42,032 bases of DNA from a virus. Positions 3,095 to 42,032 of this stretch are shown here, piece after piece. The stretch lies in IMG/VR virus record IMGVR_UViG_3300045988_070658; one strand, written 5' to 3'. A model generated the notes under the pieces. The model was not told where the DNA came from and ran no database searches. It worked only from the letters and a program-made list of their open reading frames with translations. The translations under genes were made by a program, and so were the position numbers. The number at the start of each line of letters is the position of its first letter. Position 1 is the stretch's first letter.

Positions 3095-4252
3095 TCAAGG
3101 ATTTTTGCTGACATAAGCGTCCAACAGAGCCGTATATTTTTGCGTTTCGTCCTCCCGCAGATGCTGGTAAATGCGCCGGGTGGTCATGATATCCGCATGA
3201 CCCAGAAGCTGCTGCGCCACCATATCCGGCACACCTGCGTAGAACAGATTTGTGGCGAACAGATGCCGGAACTGATGCGCCGTAACCAGTGGCCGGAACT
3301 CCTGACGCTGTACAGTGCGCTCCGGGCGAAGCGATGTGCCTGGTATCTTCGCTTCTCTGGTGTAGCTCTCGCATAAACCGATGTCCCGGCAGTACATCGT
3401 CCAGCGGCGGCTATACTGGCTCTGCGTAAGGGGCTTATCTGTGCCGGACAGCACATAGTCCTCCGGGCGGTGGGCAGCCTTCCCTGCTTCCAGCAGAGGA
3501 CGCAGCGGGCTGAGGATCGGGACAGAGCGGTACGCTTTCTTTGTTTTCAGCAGTTCCTTATACGGCTGGTTACGGCTCCACGGCATGGCCTGCACCGGCG
3601 TGATGACCCCGGCATCCAGATCTACGTCCTTCCACTGCAAGCCGTTTGCTTCGCCCATGCGCAGCCCGGTGTATTCAAAGAGCCACGCCCAGAATCCGCA
3701 GCCCTCGGGGTGGGCGTTGATGATCTCCCGCTGTTCCTCGGTAGGCTCTTCCCTGCCGCCCTCCGGCAGCCCGGCGGGGAGCTTTGCCAGCGGCACAGGA
3801 TTCCCGGTGCCGTGGTACTCCGCGCACCAATAGGAGAACACGCAGGACAGCACGCTCTTTGCGTTTTTGACCGAGTGCTTGCTCTTGCCCTGCGTTTTCA
3901 GAAGCTCCAGATACCCCCGCACCGCTTGCGCGTCGATATCCTGCATCGGGGTATCCCCGAAGTACGCGCGCATGGGCGGGAAGTTCTTGCAGTAGGCGTT
4001 CACCGTACCGCGCCGCACCGGAGAAGCATCGCTCTTGATATACTCCTCATACGCCACCGACACCACCCGAAACGTGTAGCGCTTTTCCTTCGGGGTCATG
4101 GATTCGATTTTGTAGTCCAGCACGGCCTGCTGGTATTTACGCTCCGCCTCGGCTTTGGATCTGCCATAAAAGACCCTGGGCTTTGGCAGTCCGGCGCTCC
4201 GGTGGATGCACACCCGGCCATCCGGGCGCTTTGTCTTTTTCGTTTCAGCCAT
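3095..4252 (-). CDS. int: Tyrosine recombinase / phage integrase
   Basis: C-terminal catalytic region ..HQFRHLFATNLF..LLGHADIMTTRRIYQHL (R..HxxR..Y signature). Start chosen at ATG 4252 (MAETKKTK) with GGAGGTG RBS at 4259-4265. The ORF-track extension to 4294 overlaps a plus-strand promoter. Confidence 0.9.
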   Translation of the reverse strand: MAETKKTKRPDGRVCIHRSAGLPKPRVFYGRSKAEAERKYQQAVLDYKIESMTPKEKRYTFRVVSVAYEEYIKSDASPVRRGTVNAYCKNFPPMRAYFGDTPMQDIDAQAVRGYLELLKTQGKSKHSVKNAKSVLSCVFSYWCAEYHGTGNPVPLAKLPAGLPEGGREEPTEEQREIINAHPEGCGFWAWLFEYTGLRMGEANGLQWKDVDLDAGVITPVQAMPWSRNQPYKELLKTKKAYRSVPILSPLRPLLEAGKAAHRPEDYVLSGTDKPLTQSQYSRRWTMYCRDIGLCESYTREAKIPGTSLRPERTVQRQEFRPLVTAHQFRHLFATNLFYAGVPDMVAQQLLGHADIMTTRRIYQHLREDETQKYTALLDAYVSKNP

Positions 4253-4277
4253 AACAACACCTCCAAAAGGGTACACT

Positions 4278-4306
4278 TTGACAAGCCCGCCCAAATGAGG
4301 TATAAT
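4278..4306 (+). promoter_or_regulatory. Perfect consensus sigma70-type promoter TTGACA-N17-TATAAT, divergent from int
   Basis: TTGACA 4278-4283, 17-nt spacer, TATAAT 4301-4306. Confidence 0.7.
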
Positions 4307-4309
4307 CGC

Positions 4310-4393
4310 ATTGTTGGTGTGCGATGACCCCGCAAGGGTGAGCCGCTTATTTTACGCTCTCGGTGTTCCAGCACCGGGGGCGTTTTTGTTTTT
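4310..4393 (+). ncRNA. Putative small RNA of about 80 nt (promoter-to-terminator unit)
   Basis: Begins about 7 nt after the -10. Has a CCC-GCAA-GGG tetraloop hairpin at 4329-4338. Intrinsic terminator stem 4355-4365 / 4372-4382 (two G-U pairs) plus T5GT5 at 4383-4393. No credible ORF or RBS. Confidence 0.5.
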
Positions 4394-4420
4394 CAGGTCT
4401 GCTTGCCGCAGCATACCGCT

Positions 4421-4651
4421 GCAACAAAAGTTTAGTTGTTTTCAACATTTGTCCGTCTACAAACCTGCGCAACGCTTGTAGACACGAAAAAGTGAGTATC
4501 CGTGCAGGTTTTCGGGTTTCAACATACAGAACATACGAAATCTCTTATAAAGACCCTGAATAGAAGAAAAGAAGAGTATACACGCATAGGAACAGCTTTA
4601 TATTCTTCCCGTGAGGGATTTATAGGTTTTTCGTATGCTTTGTATGCTCGG
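4421..4651 (+). repeat. Structured AT-rich repeat element, copy A (231 nt)
   Basis: Collinear with 29338-29568. Hairpin 1 at 4455-4483. Long imperfect hairpin 4521-4648 with arms made of tandem 9-mers ACATACAGA/ACATACGAA and their complement. Confidence 0.85.
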
Positions 4652-4665
4652 CGTGGGACGGCAGA

Positions 4666-5508
4666 TCAGTAGACCTTCCGGCACTCGATCACCTTGCCCA
4701 GCACCCTGACCGGGACCTTTCGTGGGTCGTAGATCTGCGGCTGGTGGGCGGGGTTCAGGCTCCGGGGCGTCAAGATCACCAGTTCCCCTTCTCTGCGGAA
4801 GGTTTTCACCGTGGCTTCATCCCCATTGACCAGCACCACCGCGATCTCGCCGTTCTCCACCTCCGGCTGCTCCCGGACAAGGATCTGGTCGCCGTCATCC
4901 ATTCCGGCGGCGTTCATGCTATCGCCCCGGATATTCAGCCAGAAATAAACAGCGCCGTCCGTTTGCCGGATGGGGATGTACCCCTCGATATTCTCCTCGG
5001 CATACATGGGCAGTCCAGCCCGGACAGTACCCAGCAGCGGAGCGACCTGTGCCATAATGCACGGTGTAGCTCCCACTCGCTTCTTCCAGTCAGCGCCCTC
5101 GTGGTCCTCCACCACGGGGGCGTTTTTCTTTTTGTCCAGAGCATCCGCCTGCCGCATTTTGCAAGCTTCATCGGCCTGTTCCCGGTCGATCTCCTGCCAA
5201 GCCTGCCACGCCTTGGAGTAATCCCCACCACAGCTTTGCAGCACAGCGTCCCACCGGGGACCGTAGACATTGGCAAGCCGGGCGTCCGGGTCGCTGTCCC
5301 AATCGTAGGAATCATCGGTTTCGTCCAGAAGGTAGTCCAAGGACACCTCGAAATAATCAGCGAGCTTTTTCAGCTGGGCAGTCTGTGGTGTTCGCCCCAG
5401 ATTCTTCCAAGTGGACACCGTGCCCTTGCTGATACCGGCTTCTACCGCAACCGCCGAGGGACTTTTTCCTACGGACTTGCAGAGCTTGCGATACTTGTCA
5501 TAAAACAT
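4666..5508 (-). CDS. CI-like repressor (XRE HTH + LexA/S24 peptidase domain)
   Basis: N-terminal HTH ..SPSAVAVEAGISKGTVSTWKN.. and C-terminal S24 motifs GDSMNAAG .. GEIAVVLVNGDEATVKTF. A linker of about 100 aa separates them. Divergent from the cro-like gene. Confidence 0.85.
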   Translation of the reverse strand: MFYDKYRKLCKSVGKSPSAVAVEAGISKGTVSTWKNLGRTPQTAQLKKLADYFEVSLDYLLDETDDSYDWDSDPDARLANVYGPRWDAVLQSCGGDYSKAWQAWQEIDREQADEACKMRQADALDKKKNAPVVEDHEGADWKKRVGATPCIMAQVAPLLGTVRAGLPMYAEENIEGYIPIRQTDGAVYFWLNIRGDSMNAAGMDDGDQILVREQPEVENGEIAVVLVNGDEATVKTFRREGELVILTPRSLNPAHQPQIYDPRKVPVRVLGKVIECRKVY

Positions 5509-7122: not shown

Positions 7123-7354
7123 TGCGGTCACTCTTGCCGGGTTTGCCCTGTGCGGCCTTCTGCTGACCATAAAAGCGCTGGACCTTGCCGAAGCGGGCAT
7201 CACCCTGCTGCTGATGGTCTGGGGCGGCTACGCCTACGGTGCTGCCGCAGCCCGCGCCCCGCTGGTATTGTACGCGGTGCTTGGTACAGTGGCTGCCCTT
7301 GGCCTGACCTTGTACGAGCTGCACCGCGAGAACCAGCAGAACAGGAGGGTATGA
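7109..7354 (+). CDS. Small integral membrane protein (81 aa, 2-3 TM)
   Basis: Hydrophobic stretches AVTLAGFALCGLLLTI, ITLLLMVWGGYAYGAA and LVLYAVLGTVAALGLTLY. GGAGGA RBS. Confidence 0.55.
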   Translation: MKKLNAVTLAGFALCGLLLTIKALDLAEAGITLLLMVWGGYAYGAAAARAPLVLYAVLGTVAALGLTLYELHRENQQNRRV

Positions 7355-7710
7355 TGTTCAACGATAAGCGCAGAGGAGATATCTGGTGGGCGCAGGACAC
7401 CACCCACAAACGCGAGGGCACCTACCTGATCCGGGGTGACCGACCGGTGGTGATCGTCAGCAGCGACAGCGTCAACTGCAACACGCGCATCGTTACGGTG
7501 GTTCCCCTGACCTCCAGCCCGGCGCAGCTGGCCCGTGGCGACGGCGCTTATGATCAGGTTCTTTTGACCGGCTACGGCGCACCGAGCATGGCATTGACCC
7601 GGCAGGTGCACGCAGTGGATGCTGACGATCTGACTGAGTATCGGGGCCATCTAGCCGACGTCGATATGCTCCGGCTGGATGCGGTCCTGCGCCAGGCCCT
7701 GGGGCTCTGA
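7351..7710 (+). CDS. PemK/MazF-family toxin-like protein
   Basis: RGDIWWAQ..G.YLIRGDRPVVIVSSD....RIVTVVPLTSS......LTRQVHAVDADDL..YRGHL...ML.LDAVLRQALGL follows the MazF/PemK fold pattern. ATG 7351 or 7354 after AGGAGGG. Confidence 0.7.
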   Translation: MMFNDKRRGDIWWAQDTTHKREGTYLIRGDRPVVIVSSDSVNCNTRIVTVVPLTSSPAQLARGDGAYDQVLLTGYGAPSMALTRQVHAVDADDLTEYRGHLADVDMLRLDAVLRQALGL

Positions 7711-10211: not shown

Positions 10212-12212
10212 GTGAAGAAGATCATCACGGTGGATATCGAAACCTACTCGCCGCAGGACATCGCCAAGGTGGGTGCCTACCGGTACGCGCAGGATCCGAA
10301 CTTCCAGATTCTGCTGCTGGGGTACATCACCGAGAACTCGGATACGCCCAGAGTGATAGACCTGACCAGCTGGCCGGACACGAAGCGCTTCCTGCGGGAG
10401 CAGCTGCCGTGGCTGCTGGACGACAGCTACACCAAGCGGGCGCACAATGCTGCCTTTGAGTGGTGGTGCCTGTCGGAAGCCATGGGGCTAAGCTGGGAGC
10501 AGCGGGTGCTCTGGCTCCAGCAATGGGAATGCAGCATGATCCATGCGCTTTACTGCGGCCTGCCTGCCCAGCTGGGTGCGCTCGGCGCAGCACTGAAGCA
10601 GCCGGAGGACGCGCTGAAAATGAAGGAAGGTAAAGCCCTGATCGGCTACTTCTGTAAGCCCTGCAAGCCCACCAAGACAAACGGCGGGCGCACCCGCAAC
10701 CTGCCGCAGCACGACCCCGCCAAGTGGAAGCTGTTCTGCAAGTACAACGGCATGGACGTGATCGCAGAGCGCGCCAACGACCGGCGTCTTGCACACTGGC
10801 CGGTGCCGGAGTACCTGATGCAGCAGTGGCGAGATGATGTGGAAATGAACGCGCGCGGCGTGGCGGTGGATTTGGAGTTTGTGAAGGCTGCGCTGGATAC
10901 GCTGAAGCAGAGTACCCTGCCGCTGAGCGCCGAACTCAAGACCCTGACAGGGCTGGCAAACCCCGGCAGCCGGGCACAGCTTCTGGGCTGGCTTGCAAAC
11001 CGGGGCTGCCCCATGGACAGCCTGAGCAAGGATGCCGTAGAGGAAGCGCTCCGGGGTGAACTGCCCAGCGATGTGCGCAGAGCGCTGGAACTGCGGCAGC
11101 AGCTGGGCAAAGCCAGCAACTCCAAGTACCAGACCATCGCCGACAGCGCAGGCGCAGACCACCGGGTGCGGGGCACCCTGCAGTTCTACGGTGCCAGCCG
11201 GACAGGACGATGGGCTGGGCGGCTGCTGCAGGTCCAGAACCTCCCCCGCACTTATCTGGATCAGCAGGCAGACTGGCGCGAGATCGTCAAGCTGCGGGAC
11301 GCAGAAGCGCTGGGGATGCTGACCGGCAACGTAGCAGATACCCTGAGCCAGCTGATCCGCACGGCGCTGGTGCCCGGCAAGGGGTACACCTTTATTGATG
11401 CGGACTTCTCCGCCATCGAAGCGCGGCTGATTGCTTGGCTGGCGGGAGAAGCGTGGGTGTTGGACGTTTTCCGCACCACGGGCAAGATCTACGAAGCCAC
11501 CGCAGCCCGCATCTTCGGTGTGCCGTTTGAAAGCATCGTCAAAGGCAGCCCGAACTACAAGTACCGGCAGCGCGGCAAAGTGGCAACGCTGGCGCTGGGC
11601 TATCAGGGCGGCGTGGGCGCGATGAAGCGCATGGGCGGCGATCAGCTGGGTCTGGACGATGCCGGACTGCAGGATATCGTGAACCGCTGGCGGAAGCAGA
11701 ACCCCCACATCTGCAAGCTCTGGCGGCAGATGCAGGACGCTGCCGTGCACACCATCCGTACCGGTAAAACCACTCAACCCAGAGCGGGCGTGGTCTTCCG
11801 CAAGGAAATGACCCCGGAATGCCCTTTTCCATTCCTGACCATGGAGCTGCCCAGCGGGCGCAAGCTTTTCTACGCCGACCCCGGCACCACGCCGGATGAC
11901 CGCATTACTTACAAGGAATGGGACAAAGGCGGCTGGCGAGAAGCCGAAACCTACGGCGGCAAGCTGACCGAGAACCTCACCCAAGCAGTAGGACGTGACT
12001 GTCTGGCTTTTGCACTGGACAACCTGCGGCGGGCAGGATACCGCGTGGTATTCCACGTCCACGACGAGGTGGTCATCGAACTGCCGGACACACGAGATCC
12101 AGAGCGCGCGCTGGCAGACGTGGTACGCATCATGAGCCAGCCTGCACCATGGGCACAGGGGCTGCCCCTGAATGCCGCAGGCTGGTACGGTGACTTTTTC
12201 ACGAAGGACTGA
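10212..12212 (+). CDS. Family A DNA polymerase with 3'-5' exonuclease domain
   Basis: Exo motifs VDIETYS, HNAAFEW and YNGMDV. Pol motif A DADFSAIEARL, motif B RQRGKVATLALGYQGG, motif C FHVHDEVV. GTG start after AGGAGGA. Confidence 0.9.
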   Translation: MKKIITVDIETYSPQDIAKVGAYRYAQDPNFQILLLGYITENSDTPRVIDLTSWPDTKRFLREQLPWLLDDSYTKRAHNAAFEWWCLSEAMGLSWEQRVLWLQQWECSMIHALYCGLPAQLGALGAALKQPEDALKMKEGKALIGYFCKPCKPTKTNGGRTRNLPQHDPAKWKLFCKYNGMDVIAERANDRRLAHWPVPEYLMQQWRDDVEMNARGVAVDLEFVKAALDTLKQSTLPLSAELKTLTGLANPGSRAQLLGWLANRGCPMDSLSKDAVEEALRGELPSDVRRALELRQQLGKASNSKYQTIADSAGADHRVRGTLQFYGASRTGRWAGRLLQVQNLPRTYLDQQADWREIVKLRDAEALGMLTGNVADTLSQLIRTALVPGKGYTFIDADFSAIEARLIAWLAGEAWVLDVFRTTGKIYEATAARIFGVPFESIVKGSPNYKYRQRGKVATLALGYQGGVGAMKRMGGDQLGLDDAGLQDIVNRWRKQNPHICKLWRQMQDAAVHTIRTGKTTQPRAGVVFRKEMTPECPFPFLTMELPSGRKLFYADPGTTPDDRITYKEWDKGGWREAETYGGKLTENLTQAVGRDCLAFALDNLRRAGYRVVFHVHDEVVIELPDTRDPERALADVVRIMSQPAPWAQGLPLNAAGWYGDFFTKD

Positions 12213-12493
12213 TGACGATGAAAGACACGACAGCAAAGGTTTCCACCATCCCCCCGGCTTGGTTTCAGTGCCCCTGTGGAGCGATGATACTGGTCCCGCC
12301 GGGCTGCACCAGTGATTCAGTTGGACTGACCAGATACCGTAAGAGCAAATACGCTCGTGACGGAGGTTGGTCAGTGGTCTGTACCCGCTGCGGCAGGGTC
12401 GGTGAACGCGGCCACACTCAGGCCGAAGCAAAGGCCAAGTGGGACGCAGGATTGTTTAAATACGGCCCGCTGAAGGAGGACAAAGACAAATGA
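12212..12493 (+). CDS. Zinc-ribbon protein, Lar-like (restriction alleviation family resemblance)
   Basis: CPCG ... CTRCG pairs followed by ..HTQAEAKAKWDAG.., which resembles the Lar family C-terminus. Confidence 0.4.
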   Translation: MTMKDTTAKVSTIPPAWFQCPCGAMILVPPGCTSDSVGLTRYRKSKYARDGGWSVVCTRCGRVGERGHTQAEAKAKWDAGLFKYGPLKEDKDK

Positions 12494-14895
12494 GCGCTAC
12501 ACCAATTGAGATCAGCGCGGGCGGCAGCCGGACGGCGACACACTGGTTCGCGGCATCGTTCGCGGACTGGAACAAACTCGCCAGCGAGCTGGGAAAGCTG
12601 ATGGACCGCAACTGCGGCACCGAGACCCACGCGGAGTACATGACCCTGCCCAAGACCGAACAGGACAAGCGCAAGGACGTGGGCGGTTTTGTGGGCGGCA
12701 GCCTGCGGGACGGAAGTCGTAAACGCGGATGCTGCACCGGGCGCAGCCTGATCACGCTGGACATGGACAACTGCGCCCCCGGCAGCACGGAGCAGTGGGT
12801 GGCTGCCATTAAGGCCATGGGCACCGCAGCGGTCTACTCCACCCGCAAGCACGATCCGGAGCACCCGCGTCTGCGGGCCATCTTCCCCACCGACCGCGTG
12901 ATGCAGCCGGAGGAGTACCAGCCCTGTGCCCGGATGCTGGCGCAGATGCTGGACCCCACCATGCAGGTGTTTGACCCGACCACCTTCGAGACCGAGCGCC
13001 TGATGTACTGGCCCAGCCGCAGCAGCGACAGCCAGTGGGTCTGCGAAGCCACCGAGGACGGCAGCCGGATCTGCGTGGACGACCTGCTGTGGCTCTACGC
13101 CGACTGGCACGATATGCGCCAGTGGCCTGCGTGCCCCGCTGAGACGGTCAAGCTGCCCGGCGGCAAACAGGCAGACCCCACCACAAAACCCGGCGTCGTG
13201 GGTGCTTTCTGCCGGACTTACGACGTGCCCGCAGCAATCGAGAAGTTTCTCCCCGGGGTGTACGTCGATGCAGGCGCAGGCCGTCTGACCTACGCCGCAG
13301 GCAGCACCACCGCAGGTGCGGTGCTTTACGACAACGACACCTTCATCTACAGCCACCACAGCACCGACCCCGCAGGCGGCAAGCTGCTCAACGCATGGGA
13401 TCTGGTGCGTATCCATAAGTTCGGCGATCAGGACGCAGACGCAGCCCCGGGCACGCCTACCGCCTCCCTGCCCAGCTGGCAGCAGATGCGGGCGCTGGCA
13501 GAGAGCGACAACCCCACAGCCACCCGGCTCCGGCAGGAAGCCGTAGACCACGCAATGGAGGGCTTCGAGCCACAACCGGACAGCCCTGAGGACCCGGACA
13601 AGTGGCAGGAAAAGCTCGACCGCACCCAGAAGGGAGCTATCGCCTGCACCATTCAGAACGCATGGGTGATCTTGGAGAACGACCCCGCTTTGAAAGGGCG
13701 CATCTGGTCGGACACCTTCTCGGAGCGGCTGCGGTGCAAAGGCCCCTTCCCTTGGAGCGACAAGGCGCAGGAGCGGGACTGGAGCGACGAGGACGATGCG
13801 GGCGTGCGCTGGTATCTGGAGACCATCTACCGCTTCAGCGGAGTCAACAAGGCCGCCGATGCGGTGGCGCTGACCGGTGGTCGCCACGCAAAAGACCCGG
13901 TGCGGGAATACCTGACCGGGCTTGTATGGGACGGCATCGAACGGCTGGACACACTGTTCATCGACTATCTGGGCGCAGAGGACAACAGCTACACCAGAGC
14001 GGTGACGAGGAAGATGTTCGTGGCAGCGGTAGCCCGGTGCTTCCGTCCGGGGTGCAAGTTCGACCAGATCTGCATCCTCAGCGGTAAACAGGGCATCGGC
14101 AAAAGCCTGCTGCTCTCCCGCATGGGCATGGACTGGTTCAACGACAGCATCACCAGCTTTGACGGCAAGGAAGCCCGCGAGAATCTGCGGGGCGTCTGGA
14201 TCGTAGAGCTGGGCGAAATGACCGCTTTCAGCCGCTCCGAGAGCGAAGCAGCCAAGCAGTTCCTGAGCCAAACCGAGGACAGATACCGCGCCGCTTATGG
14301 CCGCAGAACGGTGCAGTACCCCCGCCGGTGCGTGTTCTTCGGCACCTCCAACAGCGCCGATTTCCTCCGCGATGCCACCGGAAACCGCCGTTACTGGCCC
14401 ATAGATTGCAGTTTTGAGCGCCGGACAAAGGTAGTTCACGATGATCTGACCCCCGCAGAGGTGGGGCAACTGTGGGCTGAAGCCGTGGCAAGATTCAAGT
14501 CCGGGGAGGAACTGATCCTCCGGGACGAGCTGCAAAAAGTCGCCCTGGCCGAGCAGCAGGCGCACACCGAACGAGACCCATGGGAGGGCAGCATCACCGA
14601 TTTTCTGGACAAGACCATCCCGCTGGACTGGGGCAAGCGCAGCATCGACGAACGCATCTGCTGGTTGGAAAACGGCTCTTCCGATGGGGAGAGCACCACC
14701 CAGAAACGCATGACTATCTGCGCCAACGAGGTCTGGCGGGAGTGCATCGACCGCACCGGCAGAGACCCTGACCGGGTGCAGACCAAACGGATCAACGCCA
14801 TCCTGAACAGCCTCCCGGGGTGGGTGCCGGGCAAGTACCCGCAGCGGTGCGGGGCATACGGGATGCAGCGCATCTGGCGCAGGAAACCGGAGTAA
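12490..14895 (+). CDS. Primase / helicase (VirE-like, P4 alpha-type P-loop NTPase)
   Basis: 801 aa. N-terminal primase-like region with LITLDMDN acidic motif. Walker A SGKQGIGKS and Walker B-like VWIVELGE. Typical partner of DUF2800, DUF2815 and PolA. Confidence 0.8.
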   Translation: MSATPIEISAGGSRTATHWFAASFADWNKLASELGKLMDRNCGTETHAEYMTLPKTEQDKRKDVGGFVGGSLRDGSRKRGCCTGRSLITLDMDNCAPGSTEQWVAAIKAMGTAAVYSTRKHDPEHPRLRAIFPTDRVMQPEEYQPCARMLAQMLDPTMQVFDPTTFETERLMYWPSRSSDSQWVCEATEDGSRICVDDLLWLYADWHDMRQWPACPAETVKLPGGKQADPTTKPGVVGAFCRTYDVPAAIEKFLPGVYVDAGAGRLTYAAGSTTAGAVLYDNDTFIYSHHSTDPAGGKLLNAWDLVRIHKFGDQDADAAPGTPTASLPSWQQMRALAESDNPTATRLRQEAVDHAMEGFEPQPDSPEDPDKWQEKLDRTQKGAIACTIQNAWVILENDPALKGRIWSDTFSERLRCKGPFPWSDKAQERDWSDEDDAGVRWYLETIYRFSGVNKAADAVALTGGRHAKDPVREYLTGLVWDGIERLDTLFIDYLGAEDNSYTRAVTRKMFVAAVARCFRPGCKFDQICILSGKQGIGKSLLLSRMGMDWFNDSITSFDGKEARENLRGVWIVELGEMTAFSRSESEAAKQFLSQTEDRYRAAYGRRTVQYPRRCVFFGTSNSADFLRDATGNRRYWPIDCSFERRTKVVHDDLTPAEVGQLWAEAVARFKSGEELILRDELQKVALAEQQAHTERDPWEGSITDFLDKTIPLDWGKRSIDERICWLENGSSDGESTTQKRMTICANEVWRECIDRTGRDPDRVQTKRINAILNSLPGWVPGKYPQRCGAYGMQRIWRRKPE

Positions 14896-14904
14896 TTACC
14901 CGCC

Positions 14905-15274
14905 TGAAAACCAACATACAAAGCTTGCCGAAACCGGTTTGGTGAGCATACAGAACATACAAGCAAGGTCGGCATACAAAGCATACAAGAATTTCTGAAA
15001 ACTTTAAGAAACCCGAAGAAAACAAGTACCCCGAAAAAGCACCGAACATACAGAACATACAAGCAACATACAAAGACCGCAAGCGTTTGTATGCTCGAAA
15101 AAGTGAGGGCTGATGCGGGTTTTCAGGCTAAAACATACGAAACATACAATCTTTTTCTTCTTTAAGTGAAAAACAGAAGGATTTAAGATACACGCGCGTA
15201 TACGCGAGAGCCTTATATCCTTCACGTGAGGGTTTTATAGAGAAGCCGTATGTTTTGTATGTTTCGTATGTTTT
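14905..15274 (+). repeat. Iteron field plus structured repeat element copy B (core 15067-15274)
   Basis: Ten direct and four inverted 9-mers RCATACRRN in exact 9-bp register. Hairpin 1 at 15067-15093. Long hairpin 15130-15274. Palindrome AAACCGGTTT at 14931-14940. No credible ORF. Confidence 0.85.
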
Positions 15275-15300
15275 GCCCAGAGCAGAGAGGAGTAACTACT

Positions 15301-20423: not shown

Positions 20424-21689
20424 ATGGAGCGTGTGAAACACCAAATCGAGTACAAACGGCTGGACGAGATCCGCCCCTATGACAACAACCCCCGGCGCAA
20501 TGACGAGGCCGCCAAAGCCGTGGCCAACAGCATCCGGGAGTTTGGCTTCCAGTCCCCTATAATCGTGGACAGGGATGGCGTGATCATCGCCGGGCACACC
20601 CGGTACAAGGCCGCCCGGCGGCTGAAACTGCAGGAGGTGCCGGTCATCGTGGCGGCAGAGCTGGACCCGGAGAAGGTCAAGGCTCTGCGCATCGCAGACA
20701 ACTCCACCGGCGAGGTGGCACAGTGGGACTTGCAGCTTCTGGTGCAGGAGCTGACCGGCATCGACTATGACATGACCGACTTCGGCCTGAATCTCCAGAT
20801 CAAGATCGACGAGGAAGTCAAAGAGGACGACTTCACCGCAGAGCCCCCGGAGCAGCCCATCACCCAGCGGGGTGACATCTGGCTGCTGGGCGACCACCGG
20901 GTCATGTGCGGCGACAGCACCAGCCCGCAGGACGTGGAGCAGCTCATGGACGGCCAGCTGGCCGATCTGCTGCTCACCGACCCGCCCTATAACGTGAACT
21001 ATCAGGGCTCGAACGGCAAGAAGATCGAGAACGACAACATGGCAGAGAGCCAGTTCCGGCAGTTCCTGCTTCAGGCATACTGCCGGGCTTTCGATGCCTG
21101 CCGCACCGGGGCCAGCGCGTACATTTTCCACGCAGACACGGAGGGCGAAGCATTCCGGGCGATGTTCCGGGAGGCGGGCTGGGGGCTGCATGGGTGTCTG
21201 GTCTGGGTCAAGAACAGCCTTGTTCTCGGCCACAGCGACTACCAGTGGCAGCACGAGCCCTGCCTGTATGGCTGGAAGCCCGGCGCAAACCATTACTTCA
21301 TCAACGACCGCAGCCAGACCACTGTCATAGATGACGCAAAGCCCGAGGATCTGCGCAAGATGAAGAAGGACGAGCTGCTGGAATGGGCGGTCAAGGCGCA
21401 GGAGCTGCTGACCCAGAAACCCAGCAGCGTCATCCGCTGCGATAAGCCGCCCCGCAATGCAGAGCACCCCACCATGAAGCCAGTGGTGCTCTGCGGCAGG
21501 CTGATCAAAAACAGTTCCATGCCCGGGCAGGCCGTGCTGGATCTGTTCGGCGGCAGCGGTTCTACGCTGATTGCCTGCGAACAGCTGAGCCGGAAGTGCT
21601 ACACCATGGAGTACGACCCGCGCTATGTGGACGTGATCGTTAAACGCTGGGAGGACTTCACCGGCGAAAAAGCAGTCCGCCTGAAATAA
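20424..21689 (+). CDS. ParB-like nuclease domain fused to a DNA methyltransferase (N6-A/N4-C type)
   Basis: N-terminal ParB/Srx-like ..IRPYDNNPRRND...GFQSPIIVDRDGVIIAGHTRYKAA... MTase motif IV LLLTDPPYNV and motif I LDLFGGSGSTLIA. Confidence 0.85.
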   Translation: MERVKHQIEYKRLDEIRPYDNNPRRNDEAAKAVANSIREFGFQSPIIVDRDGVIIAGHTRYKAARRLKLQEVPVIVAAELDPEKVKALRIADNSTGEVAQWDLQLLVQELTGIDYDMTDFGLNLQIKIDEEVKEDDFTAEPPEQPITQRGDIWLLGDHRVMCGDSTSPQDVEQLMDGQLADLLLTDPPYNVNYQGSNGKKIENDNMAESQFRQFLLQAYCRAFDACRTGASAYIFHADTEGEAFRAMFREAGWGLHGCLVWVKNSLVLGHSDYQWQHEPCLYGWKPGANHYFINDRSQTTVIDDAKPEDLRKMKKDELLEWAVKAQELLTQKPSSVIRCDKPPRNAEHPTMKPVVLCGRLIKNSSMPGQAVLDLFGGSGSTLIACEQLSRKCYTMEYDPRYVDVIVKRWEDFTGEKAVRLK

Positions 21690-26956: not shown

Positions 26957-26999
26957 GAAAACGCCCTGAAGGAATACACCTTCAGGGCGTTTTTTTTTT
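26957..26999. terminator. Bidirectional rho-independent terminator
   Basis: 12-bp stem 26961-26972 / 26979-26990, A-run on the 5' side and nine T on the 3' side. Sits between convergent genes. Confidence 0.85.
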
Positions 27000-29276: not shown

Positions 29277-29324
29277 GAAGCCCCGCCCCACGGAGAACGA
29301 GCCTCCCGGGGCGGGGCTTCTTTT
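29277..29324 (+). terminator. Strong rho-independent terminator
   Basis: 13-bp GC-rich stem GAAGCCCCGCCCC (29277-29289) / GGGGCGGGGCTTC (29308-29320), followed by TTTT. Confidence 0.8.
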
Positions 29325-29337
29325 GCAACATACGAAA

Positions 29338-29568
29338 GCAACAAAAATTTAGTTGATTGCAACATTTATCAACATACAAACCCGTCTCGGTTTGTATGCA
29401 GCCAAAAACCTAGGCGTGATGCGGCTTTTTGCCACCTAACATACAGAACATACGAAATCTCTTATAAAGACCCTGAACAGAAGAAAATAAGAATACACGC
29501 GTATAGGAATAGCCTTATACCCTTCGCGTGAGGGATTTATAGGGTTTTCGTATGCTTTGTATGCTCGG
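29338..29568 (+). repeat. Structured AT-rich repeat element, copy C (231 nt)
   Basis: Collinear with copy A. Hairpin 1 at 29373-29398. Long hairpin 29438-29565. An extra iteron lies at about 29327. Confidence 0.85.
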
Positions 29569-29572
29569 AAAT

Positions 29573-29607
29573 TCATAACGTTTTTTGCCCGAAGGCTGTG
29601 GTACGAT
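29573..29607 (+). promoter_or_regulatory. Conserved promoter-like motif, site 4 (TCATAACGTTTT-N17-TACGAT, TGG extended -10) upstream of the scaffold and capsid genes
   Basis: Same 12-mer, spacing and TGn-TAnnnT as sites 1-3. Lies 100 nt upstream of ATG 29707. Confidence 0.55.
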
Positions 29608-29706
29608 AACACACAGATCACACCACGCACCCGGTGTCAGAGAGGTGCAGGGCCACGCGCACGGCAGCGCGTCAACAATGCTGTAGGCCCACCGGGAGGT
29701 AACACA

Positions 29707-40196: not shown

Positions 40197-42032
40197 TTGA
40201 GCAGCGATATCGTAACTTACCCGCTGAATGGCATCACCTATACGGCAGAAGAAGCCGCCGGGTATCACTCGGCCAGAACTTCGGGCGTCTACTGCCTTGA
40301 CGAGGATTTCAAAGTCAGTCTCTCGAGCGGCGGCAAATCGGTACGGATCAGCTCTGGCAGAGCATGGGTGCACCCCAGCCGCTTTACCGGCTACAGCATC
40401 ATTATGCAATGGCCTGTCACACTGGCTTTGTCGACGCCCACACTTTTGTGCTCTCGCGTCGACCGCGTGGTGCTCCGGTTTGACAGGCGCGCCCGCCGCT
40501 CCTATCTGACAGTGCTGAAGGGCACGGAGATCTTCGGTGGTACCCCCAGCAGCTCTGCAGCGCCCCAGATCACCCGCAACGAATACGTATACGACCTGTG
40601 TCTGGCAGAGATCCGGTATTTCGCCGGTACGAATATCATCCCAAGTCTCATAGACACCCGAGGCGATGAGTCTCTCTGCGGCCTGATGCGCGACGGCGTG
40701 ACCCGCATCCCGGAGCTGACCATCGGCACTGTGACCACAGGCGAGACCGCCAGTGCCACCATCAAAAACGGCGTGCTGAGCCTTGTGCTGCCGAACGGCA
40801 ACGGCGGCAGCAGCACCGGCGGCTCCGGCCTGAGCGAGACCAGCAAGACCCTGCTGCTGTCCCTTTTGGAAAACGCCGCCTACACCAGCCCCTCCATGCA
40901 GGCGCAGCTGAACGCCCTGCGCACCGAGTGGAGCAGCAGCGGCGGTGGCAGTGACGAGATCCCGGTACAGAGCGTAAGCCTGAGCAGCAGCGCCCTGACC
41001 CTGAACGAGGGCGAGAGCAAGACCCTGACCGCCACCGTGCTGCCTGCGGACGCCACCAATAAAAGTGTCATCTGGACGGTGACCCCAACCGGCATTGCCA
41101 CCGTGGTAAATGGCACTGTGACGGCCAGCAAGGCGGGCGGCTGCACCGTTACGGCTATGGCAGGCGGTAAGAGCGCCAGCTGCACCGTGACGGTCAAGGC
41201 CGCAGCAGCAGAAGCCGAAGCAACCCTGCTGTACACTCTGTCGTCCGCAACCACCACGTCCTCGGCAGACAAGACCTGTCTGGATACCGGGCTGCAGCTG
41301 CTGGCAAAGGCATCCACCGAGACCCCGCAGTACACCATTTTGTGGGAAGCGCAGGTAGCCGATAATGCAGACGCAAGCACGTGGCCGAACATGATCAACT
41401 GCCAGACCGAGAAGGGCAACTTTACTGATATGCCGGGCTTTAACGGCAACCTGAACCCGAACACCGGCACGCTCGATTTTGCCTATTATAAATATTCCTT
41501 TGACGATGCACGTCTGTGCGATACACTGGAGCACGCAAAAACCAAGACGCGCTATGCCGTTCAGCTGAACGGAGCACAGTATCGTGTCGGCAGCACCCAT
41601 TGTACCTTGAGCGGATGGAAAAAGACCGGCGATACGGTCAAGGATGTGCCGGAAACGCTTATCTTTGGCGCAGCCTACACCGCAACGGGCGAGCACACCC
41701 GCTTTCTGGACTGTACCATCTCCCAGTGCATGGTGTACAAGGGTCTGCTGAGCGACAGCAAGCTCCAGTCGTACATCAATGGCGAGTGGGGCAACGATGC
41801 GGAGACAGTCCCGGTGCAGAGCGTCAGCCTGAGCCAGTCTGCCCTGACCCTGAAAAGGGGCGGCAGCGCTACACTGACTGCTACTGTGCTGCCTGCGGAT
41901 GCCACCAACCGTGCAGTGGTCTGGACGGTAAGCCCCAGCGGCTATGCAACGGTATCCGCTGGCAAGGTAACTGCCGCGAAGGCCGGCACCTGTACGGTGA
42001 CCGCCACCGCAGGCGGCAAGAGCGCCAGCTGC
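40197..42032 (+). CDS. Tail fibre / receptor-binding protein, N-terminal 611 codons (open at the window end, continues at nt 120)
   Basis: Absent from the ORF track because there is no stop before the window end. TTG 40197 lies 6 nt after AGGAGGG. N-terminal anchor region of about 255 aa, then two tandem [Big_2 Ig-like + beta-rich domain of about 200 aa] modules (40962-41810, then 41811-42032 plus 120-701). Confidence 0.8.
   Translation, partial: MSSDIVTYPLNGITYTAEEAAGYHSARTSGVYCLDEDFKVSLSSGGKSVRISSGRAWVHPSRFTGYSIIMQWPVTLALSTPTLLCSRVDRVVLRFDRRARRSYLTVLKGTEIFGGTPSSSAAPQITRNEYVYDLCLAEIRYFAGTNIIPSLIDTRGDESLCGLMRDGVTRIPELTIGTVTTGETASATIKNGVLSLVLPNGNGGSSTGGSGLSETSKTLLLSLLENAAYTSPSMQAQLNALRTEWSSSGGGSDEIPVQSVSLSSSALTLNEGESKTLTATVLPADATNKSVIWTVTPTGIATVVNGTVTASKAGGCTVTAMAGGKSASCTVTVKAAAAEAEATLLYTLSSATTTSSADKTCLDTGLQLLAKASTETPQYTILWEAQVADNADASTWPNMINCQTEKGNFTDMPGFNGNLNPNTGTLDFAYYKYSFDDARLCDTLEHAKTKTRYAVQLNGAQYRVGSTHCTLSGWKKTGDTVKDVPETLIFGAAYTATGEHTRFLDCTISQCMVYKGLLSDSKLQSYINGEWGNDAETVPVQSVSLSQSALTLKRGGSATLTATVLPADATNRAVVWTVSPSGYATVSAGKVTAAKAGTCTVTATAGGKSASC
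41914..42032. repeat. Terminal direct repeat, right copy (identical to 1-119)
   Basis: Same evidence as the left copy. Confidence 0.9.

Follow-up and report, generated by a model that had tools for sequence, protein, structure and literature searches.

The closest described counterparts of the element considered here are the replication origins of staphylococcal pathogenicity islands (SaPIs). According to the passages of PMC9371898 that deal with these origins, the C-terminal winged-helix domain of the initiator Rep binds iterons located immediately downstream of rep. In the same passages, the SaPI origin is described as AT-rich at its centre and flanked on either side by two or more iterons, which point in opposite directions, two Rep hexamers probably load, one per side, and pri and rep of SaPI5 are fused. 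In Bacillus phage SPP1, one phage initiator binds two origins, oriL and oriR, and oriR has been proposed to be an initiator-bound fork barrier at which recombination-dependent concatemer synthesis starts (PMC3485210). Origins of the pRN1 ORF904 type contain a large stem-loop 3′ of the gene for a prim-pol/SF3 helicase/winged-helix protein, and the same holds for the Bordetella phages BIP-1 and BPP-1 (PMC4234260). Here we describe three co-oriented elements, each about 250 nt long, in the IMG/VR virus record IMGVR_UViG_3300045988_070658, whose 42,032 nucleotides are referred to as the window. Their anatomy, their behaviour in related phages and the homology of an adjacent primase-helicase to SaPI Rep make it likely that the three elements are copies of a phage replication-origin cassette acting as double-stranded DNA.

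The ends of the window are identical over 119 nt (1 to 119 and 41914 to 42032), indicating a complete circular assembly of 41,913 bp, and genes cross the junction. It is the genome of a complete circular temperate Faecalibacterium phage, siphovirus-like and 41.9 kb in size, and its nearest genomic relatives are contigs of Faecalibacterium metagenome-assembled genomes (MAGs). Around this circle the copies, termed A, B and C, are spaced by 10.6, 14.3 and 17.0 kb. Copy B is very probably an origin bound by the primase-helicase of the phage, and the same protein probably binds copies A and C. The elements consist of the following parts:

4409 to 4651, plus strand: copy A, accessory origin-like cassette between the int and cI genes (both minus strand); left end approximate; nhmmer match of 199 bits at 4422 to 4659
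4455 to 4483, no strand assigned: 'hairpin 1' of copy A, two inverted iterons GTCTACAA/TTGTAGAC of the GWCTAC type; the other iterons of the genome are of the CATAC type
4485 to 4515, plus strand: A-run/T-run box of copy A, CGAAAAAGTGAG..TGCAGGTTTTCGG, kept across iteron classes
4520 to 4539, plus strand: left iteron pair of copy A, direct CATACRR repeats 9 bp apart (4523 to 4529 and 4532 to 4538)
4540 to 4628, plus strand: AT-rich spacer of copy A with purine box GAAGAAAAGAAG and conserved core CCGTGAGGGATTTATAGG, proposed unwinding region
4629 to 4648, minus strand: right iteron pair of copy A, inverted relative to the left pair (4631 to 4637 and 4640 to 4646)
14913 to 15062, plus strand: upstream array of copy B, seven direct CATACRR iterons, six of them in three 9-bp-spaced pairs
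15015 to 15026: purine box of copy B, inside the upstream array
15067 to 15274, plus strand: core of copy B, proposed primary replication origin; nhmmer match of 198 bits
15067 to 15093, 15096 to 15127 and 15134 to 15149: inverted iterons, A-run/T-run box and left iteron pair of the copy B core
15150 to 15243 and 15246 to 15270: AT-rich core and three inverted iterons of the copy B core
29326 to 29574, plus strand: copy C, accessory origin-like cassette between a bidirectional terminator and the scaffold/capsid operon; nhmmer match of 177 bits
29329 to 29335, 29373 to 29398 and 29401 to 29433: boundary iteron, hairpin 1 and A-run/T-run box of copy C
29440 to 29455, 29456 to 29545 and 29548 to 29563: left iteron pair, core and right iteron pair of copy C

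All copies share one order of parts, that is, an inverted iteron pair, an A-run/T-run box, two direct iterons 9 bp apart and an AT-rich spacer of about 95 bp with a conserved core, followed by two or three inverted iterons. The 9-bp-spaced repeats are evidently iterons. Two direct and two inverted iterons flank the AT-rich DNA in A and in C, two and three in B, where the upstream array is added; relatives show the same array upstream of copy B. The motif CATACRR occurs 32 times in the window versus 11.3 ± 3.2 times expected, a number that none of 100 shuffles reached, and 25 of the 32 occurrences lie inside the three elements. Two further motifs are found inside the elements only, namely the purine box GAAGRAWWNAAG (five matches versus 0.09 expected) and the A-run/T-run box AAAAAGTGAG-N6-TGCGG-N-TTTTC (three matches versus 0 expected). 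With a profile built from the copies themselves, nhmmer E-values ranged from 1e-52 to 2e-59. The GC content between 15001 and 15300 is 0.41 compared to about 0.60 genome-wide. The core of copy B adjoins the ribosome-binding site of the VRR-NUC gene.

The coordinates and sequences quoted for the three copies in the original prediction proved to be correct throughout. This includes the collinearity of A (4421 to 4651) and C (29338 to 29568), which are 91% identical between 4521 to 4651 and 29438 to 29568 (blastn), the unchanged order of parts in the more diverged copy B (15036 to 15279, with the repeat array from 14913 onwards) and the arms of hairpin 1 (GTCTACAA/TTGTAGAC in A, CATACAA arms at 15067 to 15093 and 29373 to 29398). 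Due to an extra left iteron, the cassette is about 12 nt longer at its left side than originally given. The boundaries of copy C (about 29326 to 29574) were set by comparison with two relatives, L253 and L255, from which this copy is cleanly absent, and the left end of copy A was placed by analogy with copy C near 4409, at a near-iteron of copy A, CATACCG. The left ends of A (4421 to 4450) and C (29338 to 29367) also hold CAAC/GTTG dyads (GCAACAAAAGTTTAGTTGTTTTCAAC). In this stretch, some relatives read AGTTGAC, an iteron of the GTCAAC class described below, and the dyads may be relics of an earlier iteron type.

Most likely, the iterons are read by the C-terminal domain of the phage's own primase-helicase, a protein of 801 amino acids. 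Its gene and the domain in question are located as follows:

12490 to 14895, plus strand: primase-helicase gene, 801 aa; Pfam VapE-like domain (9.7e-83)
about 14590 to 14892, plus strand: C-terminal domain proposed to read the iterons, residues ~700 to 801, on the basis of homology and an AlphaFold2 (AF2) model

The primase-helicase matches phrog_256 end to end, and residues 370 to 722, its helicase part of the SaPI-Rep/VapE type, are homologous to SaPI1 Rep (PDB 7PDS; E 4.7e-83, phmmer). The N-terminal domain has no Pfam or NCBIfam match, and its designation as a primase comes from PHROG annotations only. An AF2 model of residues 600 to 801 matched 7PDS over the whole query (Foldseek probability 1.0, TMq 0.63), so that the modelled C-terminal region corresponds to that of Rep. 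The pLDDT of the model is mostly above 90 over residues ~700 to 801, the last ~60 residues are arranged as helix-helix-strand-strand, and weaker Foldseek matches include the winged-helix domains of IRF and forkhead proteins. As in PriRep of SaPI5, primase and helicase are fused in the window protein. The gene stops at 14895 and the iterons of copy B start at 14915, an arrangement that is the same in 76 relatives. Thus, copy B, with its short opposed iterons around an AT-rich centre immediately 3′ of the gene, corresponds feature for feature to the SaPI origin as outlined in the cited passages of PMC9371898. A and C do not lie immediately downstream of the rep-type gene. All three copies have at least two opposed iterons on each side of an AT-rich centre.

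There are also clear differences. SaPIs have one cassette per genome, whereas the window phage has three, with A located 8 kb upstream and C 14 kb downstream of the gene. Unlike a SaPI satellite, the window represents a complete tailed phage with its own family-A polymerase. Finally, the polar, asymmetric layout of the window cassettes and their additional non-iteron boxes set them apart from the SaPI origin in the form in which those passages present it.

The iteron sequence of SaPIs is element-specific, according to the same passages, and by sequence this appears to apply here as well. Across the phage family, the intergenic region between the primase-helicase and VRR-NUC genes harbours at least 10 repeat types within one constant architecture. 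Depending on the lineage, the repeats read CATACAR, GCATACA, GTCTACAA/GACTACAA (the GWCTACAA type), GTCAAC or ACAAACRG; in distant relatives GGTTGAC, GTAAACA, GGTAACA, GTTACAAA, CGTTACC and GTCCACAAG or GGTAACAA occur. Within a class, the iteron segments are the best conserved part of the element (the B copies are 0.91 and 0.84 identical there versus 0.69 in the inner region). When the CATAC class is compared with the GTCAAC class, the same segments are conserved worst (0.35 to 0.36 versus 0.56 to 0.62). In 37 out of 37 genomes with at least two copies, all copies belong to one coarse repeat class (xxTAC, GTCAAC or CAAAC), and the inner sequence specific to A and to C stays orthologous across repeat classes. 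Taken together, this points to a phage-encoded trans factor whose specificity co-evolves with its sites. In several relatives the two arms of hairpin 1 belong to different types (CATACAA and TTGTAGTC) and are then non-complementary, suggesting that they act as binding sites and not as a stem.

Within the primase-helicase, divergence between classes is highest in the C-terminal ~100 residues. A particularly clean case is provided by a pair of relatives, L138 and L139, which differ in their iterons (GGTAACA versus GTTACAAA). Their DNA is about 91% identical in both flanks, and identity falls to 53 to 75% only where the final ~360 nt of the primase-helicase gene and the origin are compared. The two proteins share 97% identity over residues 1 to 700 and 66% in the C-terminal domain. 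This looks like the exchange of a cassette composed of the C-terminal domain plus the origin. In L179 and L181, which share the same iteron, conservation of the C-terminal domains is on a par with that of the remaining protein (82% versus 84%). The VRR-NUC, cI and cro proteins were considered as determinants of specificity as well, and none of them tracks the iteron class. An Anaerovoracaceae MAG is the source of one of the two sequences (L138, 5460 to 6243, and L139), a contig of Ruminococcus albus KH2T6 that of the other.

The original prediction had proposed DNA-level iteron clusters for a phage replication protein as one of three readings, without choosing among them. This proposal is supported by lineage-specific repeats that agree within a genome, by the adjacent SaPI-Rep homologue with its matching modelled C-terminal region and by the SaPI layout of copy B.

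In IMG/VR, the core pattern TTCNCGTGAGGGNTTTATAG retrieved 16 loci, orthologous elements only, and about 140 further loci were obtained when the primase-helicase and the capsid protein served as queries. The pattern AACATACRRAACATACRA mostly produced chance matches in IMG/VR, and copy A had no blastn match among 50,697 GenBank phage records. All 106 profile matches of at least 35 bits lie at three orthologous positions (21 at A, 42 at B and 43 at C) and point in the same direction as the primase and capsid genes. Scanning for the A-run/T-run box, a search independent of the repeat type, yielded 46 further genuine copies, and all of those with identifiable neighbours occupy the same three positions in the same relative orientation. 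Thus, random insertion is excluded, and the random positions and orientations in relatives that would have spoken against the original prediction were not seen. In the 21 related loci, copy A is located between int and cI, always co-oriented with the primase gene, while the 43 orthologous C copies all lie upstream of the scaffold gene in one orientation.

An iteron cluster with the layout of copy B is present between the primase-helicase and VRR-NUC genes in 76 out of 76 relatives, down to a protein identity of 40%. In relatives with 40 to 52% identity of the primase-helicase it is the single cluster within ±10 kb, and in the whole genome of the cultured Acutalibacter phage Fontainebleau a single cluster with GGTAACGA repeats and the same box order is found, again at the B position. 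A and C are confined to a sublineage of Faecalibacterium phages with at least 60% identity. Copy A is absent from L173, whose lysogeny module (integrase and immunity) differs. Copy B is thus probably the ancestral, universal origin, and A and C are accessory copies of one sublineage. In two phages of the GTCAAC class, L169 (11433 to 11690) and L172, an extra Cys-rich small open reading frame (ORF) of about 85 aa lies between the primase-helicase stop codon and the origin.

Three parts of the cassette are conserved across iteron classes, namely the A-run/T-run box, which is still recognisable in phage Fontainebleau, the purine box GAAGRAWWNAAG and the core CGTGAGGGATTTATAGG. The SaPI origin, in the passages of PMC9371898 devoted to it, has no counterpart to any of them. 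Their conservation implies a second recognition event, perhaps by the primase domain or a host factor.

By analogy to SaPIs, initiation would start with docking of the C-terminal domains on the oppositely oriented iterons. One hexamer would assemble on each side and the AT-rich spacer would melt. The N-terminal primase domain would then prime synthesis and the family-A polymerase of the phage would extend the primers.

An origin beside a primase-helicase gene is expected, but two further co-oriented copies elsewhere in the genome are unusual. Copies A and C appear to be kept functional as binding targets because their iterons change along with those of B when the specificity changes. As both have the minimal architecture of a SaPI origin, they could fire as origins, and our preferred reading is that they serve as auxiliary origins. 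Alternatively, the initiator bound to them may stall forks in a polar manner and thereby bring about the switch to concatemer synthesis, as has been proposed for oriR of SPP1. The strict co-orientation of the cassettes fits a polar function and does not decide between auxiliary origins and barriers. In line with the SPP1 scheme, the window phage encodes an exonuclease, an annealing protein and a junction-type nuclease, a set that matches recombination-dependent concatemer synthesis. Like SPP1, it has more than one copy of the origin sequence per genome, and its three copies share iterons and core. Unlike SPP1, there are three copies and not two, and the two phages are likened by description. 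The initiator of SPP1, G38P, is a stand-alone origin-binding protein and requires a loader as well as a DnaB-type helicase.

Phage P4 comes close in another respect. As cited in PMC4234260, its multifunctional primase-helicase binds origin repeats through a C-terminal winged-helix domain, and a second, distant repeat cluster, crr, acts in cis. In contrast to the window phage, the P4 primase is of the Toprim type and crr comprises repeats but not the complete origin, again judged by the description given there. With pRN1 the window phage has in common an origin directly downstream of the replication-protein gene that appears as a stem-loop of about 100 nt (PMC4234260). However, pRN1 lacks iterons and depends on the integrity of the stem, whereas the hairpin potential of the window elements stems mainly from inverted iterons and is not conserved as a fold.

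Going further, we tentatively propose that this temperate phage keeps its three co-oriented, initiator-matched cassettes as a multi-origin system, or as an origin plus programmed barriers, for a self-loading primase-helicase of the SaPI-Rep type. In this proposal, on which we place somewhat less than even confidence, the C-terminal domain and the cassettes would change specificity together, and the non-iteron boxes would mark a second, previously undescribed recognition step, for example start-site selection by the primase or binding of a host factor.

Several observations weigh against an origin cassette read by the primase-helicase. The assignment of the C-terminal domain to the iterons draws on homology and on co-divergence with an adjacent sequence, and because the domain adjoins copy B, genetic linkage could contribute to this co-divergence. 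Iterons of the GTCAAC type occur together with C-terminal domains that are only 31% identical (L169 and L181). Another candidate binder is encoded just upstream by a small variable ORF (12212 to 12493) that has no family match. Phages of the CATAC class carry some GWCTAC-type repeats in A and C, including hairpin 1 of copy A in the window, and in L133 and contig 29857_397 a GTCTAC-type A is found beside a CATAC-type B. Agreement of repeat types within a genome is thus only coarse; the CATAC and GWCTAC types have TACAA in common. The strong conservation of non-iteron boxes that the SaPI origin lacks in those passages and the dispensability of A and C in some relatives count on the same side. 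The cumulative GC skew peaks at copy B as a local maximum instead of showing a minimum as at bacterial origins; GC skew was not used as an origin signal as it is confounded by gene content and an unreliable guide in phages. DnaA boxes (TTATNCACA, at most one mismatch) are not enriched in the elements, with 12 found versus 14.6 expected and one of them inside copy C (29366 to 29374).

Alternatively, the elements might be sets of operators or promoters bound by a phage-specific transcription factor and not by the helicase. The operons following B (nuclease/helicase) and C (capsid) would then be switched on or insulated, and A would give rise to an antisense transcript of cI. Both B and C are indeed directly upstream of plus-strand operons, with B next to the ribosome-binding site of VRR-NUC, and a plus-strand transcript from A would be antisense to cI. 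A conserved TATAG/TATAA-like box precedes the right-hand repeats, and a phage-specific repeat type is also what operators show. Nevertheless, we regard such a regulatory function as improbable. No conserved sigma-70 promoter was found inside the elements and none is common to the copies, A having a 9 out of 12 match and B and C none. Phages without C retain GCTGTGGTACGATA... downstream, suggesting that the capsid operon is independent of this copy. The immunity genes cI and cro vary independently of the repeat class, and the only copy that is universal is invariably found behind the helicase gene, the C-terminal domain of which diverges together with the repeats.

A and C might also be inert leftovers of duplication without present function, with B being the only origin. 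Their absence from some relatives, and from all distant ones, is compatible with this view, as is the fact that they carry mixed repeat types more often than B. It is an improbable scenario, since A and C are found complete and in unchanged orientation in dozens of diverged genomes, and since their non-iteron boxes are conserved as in B. Moreover, the iterons of A and C were replaced in step with those of B in the GTCAAC, CAAAC and GACTAC lineages while the surrounding sequence remained orthologous.

The third reading put forward originally was a MITE-like insert (MITE, miniature inverted-repeat transposable element) or a recombination sequence that marks and creates module boundaries. In its favour, inverted repeats delimit the cassette, the copies are located at borders of functional modules, C is either there or missing with sharp edges, and A is missing where the lysogeny module differs. 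However, all 150-plus copies occupy three orthologous sites and were never found elsewhere or inverted. A comparison of empty and filled C sites revealed no target-site duplication, there is no associated transposase, and the supposed terminal repeats change with the C-terminal domain of the helicase. Breakpoints of blastn homology are not enriched at the elements either: 6, 7 and 15 of 898 fall on A, B and C, compared to about 9.6 expected per interval of that size. We therefore consider this reading very unlikely.

The remaining reading, a structured plus-strand RNA with functional hairpins, either a cis-regulatory leader or a small RNA, takes its appeal from the better folding of the window copies compared to their shuffles (z -3.4, -5.3 and -6.0), from the location of all copies on one strand and from some arm changes that look compensatory within the window genome. 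The claim that the inner stems stay complementary holds for the window's own copies and fails in relatives, and the long 'hairpin' seems to be mainly a consequence of inverted binding sites. Computation largely refutes an RNA function, which is most improbable: RNAalifold found no consensus fold (0 pairs, 0 kcal/mol) in 96 unique and 27 diverse A/C copies; the window's hairpin is Watson-Crick paired in 45 to 59% of cells in relatives, whereas slid controls reach 28 to 49% with Watson-Crick plus G-T pairs; G-T oppositions (0.06 to 0.15) are about as frequent as A-C oppositions (0.07 to 0.15), arguing against a plus-strand bias; the mean z of the inner region lies between -0.6 and -1.8 for the plus strand and between -1.4 and -2.4 for the minus strand; the hairpin-1 arms do not pair in several phages; copy A is surrounded by minus-strand genes and closely follows a plus-strand terminator; and Rfam gave no match at gathering scores for the whole window and none below E 0.1 for the three regions.

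To judge from sequence comparison, the elements are best filed as an iteron origin of the Rep/PriRep type in three co-oriented copies, a finding that is real and apparently functional. This gives a large family of gut Clostridia phages an assigned replication origin and a likely code by which the initiator recognises DNA. Matches to the primase-helicase are found in 1112 GenBank phage records and cover at least 80% of its length in 335 of them, and in the record of phage Fontainebleau, the one cultured relative inspected, no origin is annotated. With at least 10 iteron types and the diverged C-terminal domains that accompany them, one clean swap of domain and origin included, the family could be mined for the rules of DNA reading by Rep-type winged-helix domains. 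The triplicated, co-oriented cassette makes the role of secondary origins, as additional initiation sites or as programmed fork barriers behind the theta-to-sigma switch, testable in a Faecalibacterium prophage. In addition, the cassette is a compact metagenome marker for this phage group, and copy B and the helicase gene might together make a minimal replicon for Faecalibacterium genetics.

Plus-strand terminators are present in front of A (4354 to 4393) and C (about 29277 to 29324), as originally noted. The terminator before copy A is part of a separate small transcription unit and does not belong to the element. A perfect sigma-70 consensus promoter (TTGACA-17-TATAAT, 12 out of 12) at 4278 to 4306 on the plus strand and the intrinsic terminator at 4354 to 4393 predict a plus-strand RNA of about 80 nt, which accounts for the terminator at this site. 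The RNA would be divergent from the integrase start and antisense to any read-through transcript from cI to int. This unit (4278 to 4393) is kept in 11 of the 12 relatives examined, including L136 and L170, and bears a weak, sub-threshold likeness to ctRNA_pGA1 (20 bits, E 0.11). Just downstream of copy C, GCTGTGGTACGATA(A/G)CA (29575 to 29640) is kept with or without this copy, the latter in L253 and L255, and the extended -10-like TGGTACGAT in this region may be the real promoter of the capsid operon. The two genes flanking copy A are:

3095 to 4294, minus strand: integrase gene
4666 to 5508, minus strand: gene for a cI-type S24 repressor

Apart from these, the window encodes an exonuclease, a Gp2.5-like annealing protein, the family-A DNA polymerase, the primase-helicase, the VRR-NUC-like nuclease and an SNF2 helicase, as well as terminase, portal, scaffold, capsid, tail and lysis proteins. 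The early region contains a homologue of MazF-like growth inhibitors (7150 to 7710, plus strand; phrog_1936, 2.7e-17). An ORF directly preceding the gene for the small terminase subunit (20424 to 21689, plus strand) encodes a ParB-like N-terminal domain fused to a DNA methyltransferase (phrog_498, 1e-160; phrog_620, 1.9e-48). Diverged direct repeats with 74 to 82% identity surround the assembly junction (40953 to 41183 and 41804 to 42032; 47 to 130 and 41111 to 41194) and probably reflect an internally repetitive tail-fibre gene. A minus-strand ORF of 504 aa in the junction region matches no family and is possibly spurious. A near-perfect palindrome of 36 nt (26958 to 26993; 89%), possibly a bidirectional terminator, lies where the head-gene block ends, directly in front of the minus-strand accessory island.

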